A stretch of DNA of 64,000 bases. Source: Octopus sinensis (taxonomy: Eukaryota). The translations under genes and the position numbers were made by a program. Positions within the stretch are counted from its first letter, which is position 1, and every line of letters starts with the position of its first letter. Shown piece by piece: positions 4,952 through 62,077 of this stretch. The DNA lies in the NCBI RefSeq assembly GCF_006345805.1, contig NC_043001.1, forward strand, positions 135,346,001-135,410,000. Reading direction: 5' to 3'. The notes beneath the pieces are model-generated. The model made no database searches and was not told where the DNA came from. It saw only the letters and a program-made list of their open reading frames with translations.

Positions 4952-5357
4952 GGCGCAGGAGTGGCTGTGTGTTAAGTAGCTTGCTAACCAACCACATGGT
5001 TGCGGGTTCAGTCCCACTGCGTGGCATCTTGGGCAAGTGTCTTCTGCTATAGGCCCGGGCTGACCAATGCCTTGTGAGTGGATTTGGTAGACAGAAACTG
5101 AAAGAAGCCTGTCGTATATATGTATATATGTGTGTGTGTGTGCTTGTGTGTCTGTGTTTGGCCCCCTAGCATTGCTTGACAACCGATGCTGGTGTGTTTA
5201 CGTCCCCGTCACTTAGCGGTTCGGCAAAAGAGACCGATAGAATAAGTACTGGGCTTACAAAGAATAAGTCCCGGGGTAGATTTGATTGACTAAAGACGGT
5301 GCTCCAGCATGGCCGCAGTCAAATGACTGAAACAAGTAAAAGAGTAAAAGAGAGTAA
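4952..5357 (+). mobile_element. SINE family B (tRNA-like head, internal (TA/TG)n, (AAAGAGT)n tail)
   Basis: ggcgcaggagtggctgtgtg...ggttcagtcccactgcgtggcatcttgggcaagtgtc...gctccagcatggccgcagtcaaatgactgaaacaagtaaaagagt. Confidence 0.9.
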
Positions 5358-7740: not shown

Positions 7741-8343
7741 AAGGCGGCGAGCTGGTAGAAACATTAGCATACCGGGCGAAATGCTTAGTGGTATTTTGTC
7801 TGCTGTTACGTTCCGAGTTCAAATTCCACCGAGGTTGACTTTGCCTTTCATCCTTTTGAGATCGATAAATTAAGTACCAGTCACACACTGGGGTCGATGT
7901 AATCGACTTAATCCCTTTGTCTATCCTTGTTTGTCCCCTCTATGTTTAGCCCCTTGTGGGTAATAAAGAAATAGGTATTTTGTTTGCTGTTATGTTCCAA
8001 GTTCAAATTCCACCGAGGTTGACTTTGCCTTTCATCCTTTTGGGATCGATAAATTAAGTACCAGTCACACACTGGGGTCGATGTAATCGACTTAATCCCT
8101 TTGTCTATCCTTGTTTGTCCCCTCTATGTTTAGCCCCTTGTGGGTAATAAAGAAATAGGTATTTTGTTTGCTGTTACGTTCCAAGTTCAAATTCCACCGA
8201 GGTTGACTTTGCCTTTCATCCTTTTGGGATCGATAAATTAAGTACCAGTCACACACTGGGGTCGATGTAATCGACTTAATCCCTTCGTCTATCCTTGTTT
8301 GTCCCCTCTATGTTTAGCCCCTTGTGGGCAATAAAGAAATAGG
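7741..8343 (+). mobile_element. SINE family A with a triplicated 184-bp body
   Basis: Head ggcggcgagctggtagaaac followed by three units starting gtattttgt at about 7791, 7975 and 8159. Confidence 0.9.
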
Positions 8344-8564
8344 ATATTTTGGTCATTGTGCATCACAAAATCTCACTGAGTTCTCTTTTAAAGCCAGCAA
8401 ATTATTTGAGGGAGATTTTGTTGGTATTTTTAGTGGCTCAATGATGGTGTTGAGTGGTTTACTGTCGTTGTCGATTCAATTAGTGGATCACTATGAAATG
8501 ATGCAAGCACTCCATCAGAAGCATTTCAGCAATCTGTCGTATCTGCAGTTTACAGAAATAAACT

Positions 8565-12594: not shown

Positions 12595-12973
12595 TTTATT
12601 CTCTTACTTGTTTCAGTCATTTGACTCTGGCCATGCTGGAGCACAACCTTTAGTCAAGCAAATCGACCCCAGGACTTATTCTTTGTAAGCCTAGTACTTA
12701 TTCTATTGGTATCTTTCTGCCAAACTGCTAATTTACGGGGACGTAAACACACCATCAGTTGTCAAGGGTTGGTGGGGGAACAAATACAGATACACAAACA
12801 TATACATATATACGATAGGCTTCTTTCAGTTTCCGTCTACCAAATCCACACACAAAGCTTTGGTCAGCCTGAGGCTATAACAGAAGACACTTGCCCAAGG
12901 TGCCACACAATGGGACTGAACCCATAACCATGTGGTTGGGAAGTAAGCTGCTTACCACAGAGCCACACCTGCA
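12595..12973 (-). mobile_element. SINE family B
   Basis: Reverse complement of the 4952-5357 type sequence. Confidence 0.85.
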
Positions 12974-12991
12974 CCGATGTGTGTGTGTATA

Positions 12992-13342
12992 TATATTATA
13001 TTAAATTAGAGATAAAACCACTATTAGGCAAATCATACAATGAAAAACTTAAGCCAATACATAAGATTATTTAATTTATATTATTTAAATATATAACAAA
13101 ATTATTTAAAAAAATATAATTAATATAACACTACGATCATTTCATGGCTGTTAATTTCTTTAAATTTTCAAGTTACAGTCATTCATCAGGTGGTTTAAAT
13201 ATTTAAATATTTAACTTGGCGAGGTATGATTTGCCTAATAGTGGTTTTATCTCTAATTTAATATAATATAATATTTTACTATAAAATTGGATTCAATCCT
13301 AAATCTGATTTTTCCCTGTAAGTTTGGATTTATTCCCTAATA
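12992..13342. mobile_element. AT-rich non-autonomous Penelope-like element with inverted pLTR-like segments
   Basis: Perfect 47-bp inverted repeat (12992-13038 / 13224-13270) enclosing a hammerhead motif; second family member at 43484-43890. Confidence 0.65.
13127..13196 (-). ncRNA. Minimal type-I hammerhead ribozyme motif
   Basis: Minus strand AAACCAC-CUGAUGA-AUGACUGUAA...UUAACAGCCAU-GAAA-U-GAUC-GUA|GUGUU: intact core, ~10-bp stem II, palindromic GAUC loop III, GUA triplet, stem I CAC/GUG. Confidence 0.75.
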
Positions 13343-13634
13343 TTTATTATATATATCTTAAATTTGTTTATGGGAATTGTTTTGAATGTGCAAGTAAAGC
13401 TCATATTCCATTATGCTGGTCACAATCTGATGATGCTGACTGGTGAACCAGACTTTTGGGGGTTGCATTGAGGTGTACTGAATAAATATAGCTGTAATAA
13501 CAATAATCCCTTGGATGGAATTCATAAAGATTTAATGCATCACTACGCGCATTTTCCCAAATCACATGAAGAGACATGTGATTTGTAGTAAGATGCATAG
13601 CGATGCATTAAATGTTTATCAATTCCATTATTAT

Positions 13635-14243
13635 TACTCTTTTACTTTTACTTGTTTCAGTCATTTGACTGCGGCCATGCTGGAGCACCGCCTTTAGTCG
13701 AGCAAATCGACCCCGGGACTTATTCTTTGTAAGTCTCTTTTGCCAAACCGCTAAGTGACGGAGACGTAAACACACCAGCATCGGTTGTCAACACAGATAC
13801 ACAAACACAGATACACAAACATATACACACACATATACATATATGTATATACATATATACGACAGGCTTCTTTCAGTTTCCGTCTACCAAATCCACTCAC
13901 AAGGCTTTGGTCGGCCCGAGGCTATAGCAGAAGACACTTGCCCAAGATGCCACGCAGTGGGACTGAACCCGAAACCATGTGGTTGGTTAGCAAGCTACTT
14001 ACCACACAGCCACTCCTGCGCCTACTATATATATATTCTTTTTTATTCTTTTATTTGTTTCAGTCATTTGACTGCGGCCATACTGGAGCACTGCCTTTAG
14101 TCAAGTAAACTGACCCCAGGACTTTTTCTTTGTAAGCCTAGTACTTATTCTATTGGTCTCTCTTACTGAACCGCTAAGTTACAGGGATGTAACACACCAG
14201 CATAGGTTGTCAAGCGATGTTGGAGTGACAAACACACACACAA

Positions 14244-33114: not shown

Positions 33115-33512
33115 TTAACCCTTTAACATCCAAACCAGTCATATCTGGCCAACATATTCTCCTTGTTTTCTGTTCAAACCATCCAAATCCATCCTCGCAC
33201 ACATTTCCAATACTGTTATTCTAAAAATTTACAATCACTCATTGAAATCTTGAAGTTATGAAATAATTCATGATTAATTCAAAACAATATGAATAAATAA
33301 ACATAAAGCACCCACTACACTCACGGAGTGGTTGGCGTTCGGAAGGGCATCCAGCCGTAGAAACACTGCCAGATTTGACTGGGCCTGATGAAGCCTTCTG
33401 GCTTCACAGACCCCAGTCGAACCATCCAACCCATGCTAGCATAGAAAACGGACGCTAAACGATGAACGACGAATGATGATTTGACAAAGAAATCTGTATG
33501 CTAAAGGGTTAA
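33115..33512. mobile_element. TTAA-flanked MITE with a nested SINE C fragment (33307-33480)
   Basis: TTAAccctttaacat ... atgctaaagggTTAA. Confidence 0.8.
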
Positions 33513-43442: not shown

Positions 43443-43473
<31 letters not shown>

Positions 43474-43483
43474 ATAATAATAA

Positions 43484-43740
43484 TATTAGGGAATAAATCC
43501 AAACTTACAGGCAAAAATTAGATTTAGGATTAAATCCAATTTTATAGTATAAATATATATTATATTATATTAAATTAGAGATAAAACCACTATTAGGCAA
43601 ATCAAACAGTGAAAAAACATAAACCAATACATAAAATTAATTTATATATACAAATATATATATATGTATATTTCTATATTTCTATATTATTTTGTTTATT
43701 AATTTTTTTTTTAATAAACAAAATAATATATAATATATAA

Positions 43741-43797
<57 letters not shown>

Positions 43798-43890
43798 TAT
43801 ATGTATATATATAAAAATAATTTTGTATTGGCTTAGTTTTTCACTGTTTGATTTACTAATAGTGGTTTTATCTCTTTTAATATAATATAA
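43484..43890. mobile_element. Second member of the AT-rich inverted-repeat (Penelope-like) family
   Basis: tattagggaataaatccaaacttacagg...aaattagagataaaaccactattaggcaaatca matches 12992-13342; inverted arm at about 43813-43890. Confidence 0.7.
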
Positions 43891-44301
43891 TATTATATAT
43901 ATATATATATATATATTATATTATATATATATATAATATTGTTATTATATAGTATATATATAATGTATATATATAATATGTATATATATATATGTATATT
44001 ATATATGTATATATATATGTAATATATATATGTATATATAATATGTATATATATATATGTATATATATATATGTATTATATAATATATATATATATATAT
44101 ATGATATATATATATGTATATATATATATATGTATATATATAATTATATATATGTATATATTATATGTATATATATATATGTATTATATATATGTATATA
44201 TATATATTATATATATATATATATGTATATAATATATATATATATATGTATATATATATGTATATATATATATGTATATATATATATGTATATATATATA
44301 G

Positions 44302-60269: not shown

Positions 60270-61800
60270 TGTCAATACTCTTGTCCAATGAGTCTACAAG
60301 TGCACCAGCTCATCCAAGTCTTTTTAGGATTTCTGACTTGCAGCTAATGCTGCTATGAATCTCACTGCCAAGATAAGGGAAGTAGTCAGCAACTTTAACA
60401 TTCTCACCTTCAAGGCAGAGTCTTACAAGAAGCCAATGAAGGACAAGATATTTGTCTTGACCCAAGAGACTCTAAGGCTCAATGGTTCCACTTCCTCACT
60501 GAGTGAAGGGAGAGCACTCTTTAAGACATCCAAAGACTCAACAAGAATAACTGCGTCATCAGCTAAGTCTAAGTCTGTAATTCTACTTACACTAATGAGT
60601 GCACCACAACACGATTGAGTCACCATTTGGCCAATTAGGCCGTCTCTGCAGGCATTGAACAGTGTGGGAGCCAAAGCGCAACATTGACAAACCCTAGATC
60701 TAACTGGGGAAAAAGTCAAATGTTGAGCCCCCTATCTGAACTGTACTGACTATGCTAGGGTACAGAGCCATCATCAGCCCAATAAATTGAGGAGCTCCAG
60801 AACCCTCCAAAGCATATCTCTGTTCACCGAGTCTTAAATGTTGAGCCTCCTATCTGAACTGTACTGACTATGCTAGGGTACAGAGCCATCATCAGCCCAA
60901 TAAATTGAGGAGCTCCAGAACCCTCCAAAGCATATCTCTGTTCACCGAGTCTTAAATGTTGAGCCTCCTATCTGAACTGTACTGACTATGCTAGGGTACA
61001 GAGCCATCATCAGCCCAATAAATTGAGGAGCTCCAGAACCCTCCAAAGCATATCTCTGTTCACCGAGTCTTAAATGTTGAGCCTCCTATCTGAACTGTAC
61101 TGACTATGCTAGGGTACAGAGCCATCATCAGCCCAATAAATTGAGGAGCTCCAGAACCCTCCAAAGCATATCTCTGTTCACCGAGTCTTAAATGTTGAGC
61201 CTCCTATCTGAACTGTACTGACTATGCTAGGGTACAGAGCCATCATCAGCCCAATAAATTGAGGAGCTCCAGAACCCTCCAAAGCATATCTCTGTTCACC
61301 GAGTCTTAAATGTTGAGCCTCCTATCTGAACTGTACTGACTATGCTAGGGTACAGAGCCATCATCTGCCCAATCAATCAAGGAGCTCCAGAACCCTCCAA
61401 AGCATATCTCTGTTCACTGAGTCTTAAATGTTGAGCCTCCTATCTGAACCGTACTGACTGTGCTGGGGTACAGGGCCATCATCAGCTCAATCGAGGAGCT
61501 CCAGAACCCTCCAAAGCATATCTCTGTTCACCGAGTCTTAGATGTTGAGCCCCCTATCTGAACTGTACTGACTATGCTAGGGTACAGAGCCATCATCAGC
61601 CCAATCAATCAAGGAGCTCCAGAACCCTCCAAAGCATATCTCTGTTCACCGAGTCTTAAATGTTGAGCCCCCTATCTGAACTGTACTGACTATGCTAGGG
61701 TACAGAGCCATCATCAGCCCAATCAATTGAGGAGCTCCAGAACCCTCCAAAGCATATCTCTGTTCACCGAGTCTTAGATCTGATGGCAGCAGCAGTAATG
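60270..61800 (-). pseudogene. Decayed RTE-like LINE RT region containing the 118-bp array
   Basis: ...DSVNRDMLWRVLE / LIGLMMALY / V.QCCALAPTLFN / DLDLADD / VSWVKT / FPYLGSEI. Confidence 0.85.
60718..61778. repeat. Tandem array of 9 x 118-bp units (one unit 114 bp)
   Basis: gagcc anchor at 60725, 60843, 60961, 61079, 61197, 61315, 61433, 61547 and 61665. Confidence 0.97.
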
Positions 61801-62077
61801 CATCAAAAAACGGAAAAAAAAAAAAGCCTACAATCACAGCAATTGTTCACCAGTGAACTTCTTCTCACCTACATAGGTTTTATGAAAAGAGAAAGAGTTG
61901 TGCATGTGGAGTGGAGACAGTTATGATTAGCCAAGGGCGAAACTCAGACTTGGCTGTCACCTTTTGATATAATAAACATATCTATTCACTTTATTTAATA
62001 ATGTAGCAGTTCTACATCAGATATCTTTTGCACTTTGTAAAACATATATTTGTATATATATTTTACAACTTTCCTTC

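Follow-up and report, generated by a model that had tools for sequence, protein, structure and literature searches.

A hammerhead-bearing insertion in Octopus sinensis is a dead stub of a Hydra-like Penelope-like element, likely copied from spliced sense mRNA

Main finding

The insertion studied here lies in the window, i.e., the whole stretch of 64,000 nucleotides of the Octopus sinensis genome that was analysed. It comprises about 360 bases: a TA run holds two 5'-truncated pLTR arms of a Penelope-like element (PLE) in head-to-head orientation. As such, it belongs to a known kind of dead stub, here left by a Hydra-like PLE. We consider it highly probable that the arms are two pLTR ends of a PLE with Hydra-clade motifs, reverse-transcribed from a capped, spliced and uncleaved sense mRNA off both nicked target strands. 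Comparison of genomic copies establishes the parent, the exact loss of an intron, a hard 5' stop, an extra G and a one-sided tail.

Structure of the insertion

The first-pass annotation had reported an exact 47-bp inverted repeat and interpreted it as an inverted pLTR segment. Both statements hold. Positions 12992-13038 are the exact reverse complement of 13224-13270 (47/47), with the match ending on both sides, and the repeat is merely the overlap of two head-to-head arms. That is, its left half (12992..13038, minus strand) is the 3' end of arm A and its right half (13224..13270, plus strand) is the pLTR part of arm B.

Arm A (12992..13223, minus strand) is long and tail-less. End-to-end alignment with sister copies identifies it as a 5'-truncated, spliced pLTR copy, whose 3' end faces outward, i.e., toward lower coordinates, and terminates at the inner 3' end of the family. 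Its 5' limit is about 16 nt short of the putative transcription start. The arm begins with the last 13 nt of exon 1 (13211..13223, minus), at the end of which unspliced copies continue with GT, such that the exon 1/exon 2 junction of the window copy falls between 13211 and 13210. The first bases of exon 2 are duplicated over 8 nt (13203..13210, minus), which is private to this copy (1 of 30 aligned copies). A minimal type-I hammerhead motif, recognised by its boxes and by family conservation, covers 13129..13192 (minus).

In the window, the arms meet at 13223/13224; the junction point varies from copy to copy. Arm B (13224-13350, plus strand) is short and carries the 80-nt tail (13271..13350, plus), which is found on this arm only and was delimited by sequence comparison across subfamilies. 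The end of the element, previously set to 13342, is corrected to near 13350. The two ends of the target TA run are found at 12988..12991 and 13351..13356; a target duplication is indistinguishable inside TA.

A recurrence of the family at 43484-43890 had also been proposed. Here, the ends and the two-arm, one-tail layout agree, i.e., alignment reveals a second insertion of a related subfamily with two head-to-head arms and one tail at about 43465..43901 (89.5% identity over 143 nt). The hammerhead does not recur, with both arms stopping short of it.

A microsatellite that terminates one copy of an abundant SINE-like repeat hosts the insertion (window about 12640-12975 and 13660-14030); this repeat is present many times in the window, on both strands. 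The window also contains tandem arrays of 118-nt and 184-nt units (60600-61839 and 7742-8409), in which a simple descriptor scan found no hammerhead boxes. Two copies of another repeat, at 33385 and 47369 (plus strand), show CTGATGA, a short hairpin and a later GAAA.

The hammerhead motif at family level

On the minus strand of the window, the motif consists of CAC (13192-13190), CUGAUGA (13189-13183), stem II (13182-13144), GAAA (13143-13140) and UGAUCG (13139-13134), with the predicted cut between 13132 and 13131. A 17-nt core-plus-stem pattern has 859 exact genome-wide matches vs. 0 for the reversed control, which excludes a chance origin. The family shows the features of the minimal type I, i.e., CUGANGA and GAAA boxes, an NUH site, a short stem I, a long stem II and a palindromic stem III. 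With boxes and pairing kept family-wide, the earlier call of a minimal type-I hammerhead with palindromic stem III is thus borne out. Judged from these patterns, the hammerhead is real at the family level; self-cleavage is a prediction. Taken by itself, the window copy is weak evidence for the motif, and the 109 matches of an Rfam scan of the window (E<=1) include no hammerhead family.

We evaluated conservation in 222 hammerhead arms, which were picked by their core boxes, such that box conservation is partly due to the selection of arms. Stem I has 3 bp (CAC/GUG) in most arms, with pairs 1-3 kept in 216, 218 and 207 arms, respectively. Stem II, 16-44 nt long in the common subfamilies, keeps its pairs 2, 3 and 5 in 217, 216 and 214 arms and has a mismatch at the fourth pair. 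It opens with a weak pair (A-T 159, T-T 31, A-G 18, T-A 6) in place of the G10.1-C11.1 pair that is expected next to the core in the minimal type-I hammerhead of PLEs; its G-C is the third pair, and the published Hydra-1_Obim motif has a similar build. Stem III is an 8-nt palindrome that is predicted to pair between molecules rather than within one. Compensatory changes are confined to stem II pair 1 (6 arms) and stem III pair 2 (14 arms), where the latter double change from G-C to A-T could also be yielded by CpG decay. The first-pass annotation had proposed a family consensus for checking boxes, stem pairing and covariation: core boxes and stem pairing are kept, while strong covariation was not found in the 222 arms and the support comes mostly from conservation.

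Position 15.2 is C (C-G) in 209/222 arms of the fetched loci and T-G in 9. The change C15.2U of the window copy is private, as CpG decay predicts, which agrees with the earlier view that this U derives from C. Sister subfamilies identified through protein similarity retain the hammerhead core as well, though the length of loop II differs; this pattern points to selection acting on the coding lineage. There is no accumulation of arm ends at the predicted cut site (2/44 within 2 nt vs. 1.5 expected). The RNA end formerly proposed at 13131 therefore has no genomic echo among these arms.

The parent element

The pLTR end has 2,682 exact genome-wide matches. On the 5' side of the hammerhead, long copies comprise an AT-rich UTR of about 2.2-2.8 kb and, beyond it, a GIY-YIG ORF; a protein search gave 151 matches. 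In several of the 14 long loci fetched, the ORF start is immediately preceded by hammerhead, pLTR end and tail; an intact ORF was found in none of the 14. Locus L134 is a whole unit (hammerhead, tail, RT-EN ORF, UTR, hammerhead, tail) with 5,626 nt between its two hammerheads. Directly 3' of hammerhead plus tail, the parent ORFs show DIDNYY, GAPDSA and YRDD, which we take to be RT blocks, as well as VVYKC...YIGST, presumably the GIY-YIG endonuclease motif. Pfam gave no RT or GIY-YIG match for four of the proteins, and PF26215 was found in 3/6 homologs. The Penelope-like origin assumed by the first-pass annotation is confirmed by this linkage of the pLTR to an RT/GIY-YIG ORF.

Hydra-clade diagnostics, as given in the part of PMC8557442 available to us, are DKT, a CxCX5C linker, no CCHH in the core, CxxC/CxH and RWK. 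The DKT motif is present (QSDKTRN in L124, L125 and L128). L124 has the linker CTCRDKSKC (CxCX5C), a single C in the EN core (no CCHH) as well as CYLC and CRH, i.e., CxxC and CxH around the conserved E and N; the place of RWK reads KWK in the parent. Aligned copies are flanked by (TA)n. The parent unit of 5,626 nt compares with generally <3 kb in the Hydra clade, which is a tendency in PMC8557442 and not diagnostic. Based on motif match and by-eye protein comparison, the parent is a protein-coding EN+ PLE with Hydra-clade motifs. A Neptune-like assignment was dropped on these diagnostics.

In full-length elements, the 80-nt tail continues for about 55-60 nt to the ORF start. Most subfamilies with ~80% pLTR identity show 92-99% identity in this tail; its predicted hairpin is not significant (z -1.21).

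In L124, L125 and L128, an asparagine-rich stretch of variable length separates the RT thumb from the zinc-finger linker. In L092, a head-to-head pair of a different hammerhead family, at 5078 (minus) and 5159 (plus), is located just 5' of a truncated ORF of the family studied here and may reflect a nested insertion or a template switch between families. L062 contains, ~850-1500 nt 5' of the matched stretch, another PLE reverse transcriptase fragment on the opposite strand, by eye of a different clade.

Exact intron loss

The ribozyme arm of the insertion is without a GT-AG intron of about 850-900 nt, which was removed exactly: short copies join a point ~870 nt upstream to a point 13 nt before the core. 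In unspliced copies, GT directly follows the end of exon 1 in 33/37 cases (mostly GTATGT) and the acceptor reads TTTTAG about 850-900 nt after the donor. A second, more upstream donor (GTAAGT) joins the same acceptor; the 30 ORF-side loci provide 7 spliced, 20 unspliced and 2 other rows. Thus, the intron is kept in some transposed copies and lost in others, with 20 unspliced vs. 7 spliced rows near ORFs, while exact genome-wide matches comprise 297 spliced (lost) vs. 130 unspliced (kept) arms; these latter counts are lower bounds from patterns of unequal looseness and refer to arms, not insertions. The 5' pLTR of the full-length element L129 is itself spliced at the upstream donor, and spliced RNA can therefore also supply the 5' partial-tandem copy.

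To relate spliced and unspliced copies, we used a tree of exon 2 (148 rows including duplicates and both arms of some inserts; 193 columns, unsettled bootstrap). On this tree, 22 changes are required for the spliced label, of which supported branches force at least 8, and spliced copies form one clade in 0% of 200 bootstrap trees. The spliced form recurs in every sampled subfamily of the group beside unspliced relatives, and one spliced row is identical in exon 2 to an unspliced row. The label is more clustered than in shuffles (22 vs. 46 changes), and spliced copies may have been re-amplified to a limited degree.

The joint was also read as 847 nt skipped between GT..AG in contigs of 2/4 runs guessed to be RNA, which is weak evidence given that both runs come from one study, that contigs do not reveal starts, ends or strand and that the joined form also exists as DNA. 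In the literature searched, which leaves most subscription journals outside its coverage, no report of spliced genomic PLE copies was found.

The 5' stop and the extra G

Of the 65 spliced arms, 62 terminate no more than 40 nt 5' of the donor, most at 19-31 nt, where 83% would be expected to survive this stretch given the truncation rate elsewhere. Unspliced arms, on the other hand, pass 40 nt beyond the acceptor in 8/9 cases and stop in 1/9. The common 5' limit is what we take to be an initiator-like sequence, 29 nt before the donor.

An untemplated G is a trace left by reverse transcription of a cap. For 61 genome-wide matches, the base before the putative +1 is G in 27, the templated T in 23, A in 9 and C in 2, with a flank background of 11% G. 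Among the G cases, 11/27 are readable as bases shared with the partner arm; when these are left out, the excess (16/50) is still above background (p = 6e-5). Four G cases outside the shared-base set are located directly on a TA run. From this, we infer that the extra G is a cap mark on the template. Splicing in the RNA, the start site and the cap are all read from genomic copies and are to be taken as such.

The first-pass annotation had regarded the sequence as a non-autonomous family. This is not upheld, since the short form corresponds to an exact GT-AG intron loss plus a 5' stop where transcription likely begins, and recurs across subfamilies (with the label changes given above). On these sequence grounds, the short form is best read as a dead by-product of a coding element.

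Two arms and one tail

To describe the architecture, 85 loci were picked by the hammerhead pattern, 48 of which have an opposite-strand arm. Two of them (L150, L152) were dropped, with their opposite-strand match >1.2 kb away, resulting in 46 two-armed insertions; 37/85 loci show no second arm. Arms end 3' at one of two points, namely the inner site or the end of the 80-nt tail. The tail is on exactly one arm in 43/46 insertions, on neither in 3 and on both in 0 (p about 2e-10 against independence).

Arm length and inner arm limits vary from copy to copy. Of the 43 one-tail insertions, 20 have the longer 5' extension on the tail arm and 18 on the tail-less arm, with 5 ties. This lack of a 5' length bias argues against a plain fold-back origin of either arm from its partner. 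In 15/43, the tail arm falls short of the tail-less arm by at least 30 nt, and the reverse is found in 15; the window copy belongs to the insertions with the shorter tail arm and each of its arms holds sequence absent from the other. Where the two arms both extend to the splice junction, they share their splice state: unselected loci comprise 7 spliced/spliced, 2 unspliced/unspliced and 0 mixed pairs, while all loci with duplicates merged provide 17 spliced and 2 unspliced pairs. In these small numbers, the shared state hints at one RNA being copied twice.

Alternative explanations

Given these observations, we assessed other origins of the short copies. A self-propagating non-autonomous derivative or retrozyme, i.e., a short master with a fixed deletion that is transcribed, self-cleaves and is copied in trans, would account for hundreds of short non-coding copies sharing one junction, for the clustering of spliced copies on the tree beyond shuffled labels and for some near-tandem short copies; furthermore, retrozymes are argued to derive from pLTRs in the part of bioRxiv 10.64898/2026.07.22.740005 available. 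We nevertheless regard it as improbable. The junction is that of an exact GT-AG intron with two donors in use, for which an internal-deletion master was rejected, it is present in every sampled subfamily beside unspliced relatives (with one exon-2-identical pair), and the inserts are dispersed, one- or two-armed and start at the putative start site rather than the cut site. Similarly improbable is the fold-back of one cDNA, or self-priming on an antisense template (PMC3846280), with the tail trimmed at resolution. Such a fold-back fits the 7, 2 and 0 splice states of the arm pairs as well as the near-palindromic junctions that occur, and trimming afterwards could rescue it in part. Yet an antisense RNA is not expected to show sense GT-AG splicing and a cap-like G end, and the tail arm is shorter by at least 30 nt about as often as it is longer (15 and 15 of 43), with unique sequence in each arm of the window copy.

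Function of the window copy itself, as a cleaving ribozyme or host regulatory RNA, is very improbable. Its core boxes are intact except for 15.2 and its stem III palindrome still pairs via G-U (-6.4 vs. -10.0 kcal/mol for the family). On the other hand, the copy has one hammerhead only and private decay (C15.2U, a loop II change and the 8-nt duplication), its single-copy fold is no better than shuffles (z = +0.47), and the available part of PMC4209133 reports no in vitro cleavage for single minimal motifs. Least credible, to a degree that we consider it refuted, is a MITE-like DNA transposon with the 47-bp arms as terminal inverted repeats and a chance or captured hammerhead. The exact 47-bp inverted repeat, the TA flanks and the short, non-coding sequence are what such a transposon would show, but the arms are variable in length instead of fixed and symmetric, the ends differ by the 80-nt tail in 43/46 insertions, which on its own argues against a MITE, 37/85 sampled loci are without a second arm, and the sequence represents a terminal part of an RT-GIY-YIG element.

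Proposed mechanism and implications

For reverse transcription off both target strands, we propose the following course. The GIY-YIG endonuclease would nick both strands of (TA)n. Of the two 3' ends, one would prime at the outer site, where the tail ends, and its counterpart at the inner site, which is located 80 nt closer to the 5' end of the RNA. Both cDNAs would be extended toward that 5' end and stop at random or at the cap, after which the two cDNA ends would be joined head to head, often over a few shared bases, with the ribozyme carried along uncut. A copy that has lost the intron and all sequence 5' of it is probably inactive from the moment of insertion; the lineage would be maintained by intron-bearing copies. 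The RNA may come from the 5' pLTR of a full-length element or from a solo pLTR.

According to the part of PMC11167929 available, both target strands are nicked and extended in vitro by the PLE protein of the anole, which starts at two internal sites bracketing the tail and uses uncleaved RNA. An uncleaved template fits our data because arm ends do not accumulate at the cut site and the in vitro substrate is uncleaved. In vitro, the two start sites showed no strand bias (PMC11167929, same part), in contrast to the strict one-each pairing of start sites in the genome, which counts against the model.

A more specific version is, in our view, about evenly balanced between right and wrong: a PLE protein dimer copies one capped, spliced and uncleaved mRNA twice from two fixed starts 80 nt apart, one per nicked strand, and intron retention is due to lineage selection. 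Such selection would follow because a copy needs to have the start site and the intron preserved 5' of the ribozyme in order to found new elements. If true, PLE intron retention reflects lineage selection and is not a property of the copying mechanism.

The family records its template and thus bears on the question of which RNA PLEs copy. Spliced GT-AG arms, one 5' stop and the frequent extra G favour an ordinary sense mRNA; the template is likely a capped, spliced and uncleaved sense mRNA with both arms primed separately. The strict one-tail rule without arm-length bias is a genomic prediction that is testable in the existing in vitro system (PMC11167929). In addition, the family provides a putative intron and start site for a Hydra-like element. 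For annotation, it should be considered that such stubs resemble MITEs or retrozymes.

Comparison with known systems

The window family shares with Hydra-clade PLEs, including Hydra-1_Obim (Craig et al. 2021, PMC8557442, as far as covered by the part available), the DKT motif, the CxCX5C linker, the lack of CCHH and CxxC/CxH, as well as the hammerhead in the pLTR and (TA)n targets. The Hydra-1_Obim protein (supplement of PMC8557442) shares blocks by eye and its stem II also opens with A-U. This octopus element is nevertheless a different family, since the sequences clearly differ by eye. The window family further deviates from the clade by a unit of about 5.6 kb vs. <3 kb, which is due to the long intron-bearing UTR, by KWK in place of RWK, by the asparagine-rich linker and by a tail of 80 vs. 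30-40 nt (PMC8557442). The asparagine-rich stretch resembles the N-rich inserts of rotifer Penelope elements (PMC3846280, part available). An intron or spliced copies are not described for the Hydra clade in the available part of PMC8557442.

Metazoan non-LTR retrozymes (bioRxiv 10.64898/2026.07.22.740005, part available) are likewise short, non-coding and pLTR-related with a type-I hammerhead. They are defined as tandem repeats with a hammerhead per unit, whereas the window insert is dispersed and two-armed with one hammerhead; tandem hammerhead units were found neither in the window copy nor in the sampled loci, which are one- or two-armed.

Penelope of Drosophila virilis (PMC2377424, PMC4209133, parts available) likewise has a start site in the pLTR, a short first exon, an intron and a hammerhead. 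The start-to-intron spacing is 46 nt there vs. a putative ~29 nt here. As in the window family, its intron ends just 5' of hammerhead helix I and helix III is small and palindromic (PMC4209133). Its intron has 75 bp and is retained in most genomic copies (PMC2377424, PMC4209133), unlike the window family with an intron of about 850-900 nt, a second donor and spliced arms as the majority of short copies.

The head-to-head layout itself is already known (PMC8557442, PMC3846280), and PLE intron retention is presented as an unexplained oddity in PMC8557442. Pen2a_Av (PMC3846280) and PAc in vitro (PMC11167929) show, in the parts of these sources available, the same head-to-head inverted, 5'-truncated pLTR with a tail at one end, the same AT-rich target, an uncleaved template and two fixed 3' ends. 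PMC3846280 explains the layout by antisense self-priming, which it favours because this explains intron retention, and leaves the choice against an unspliced sense template open. The window family, in contrast, points to a spliced sense mRNA with one start of each kind.
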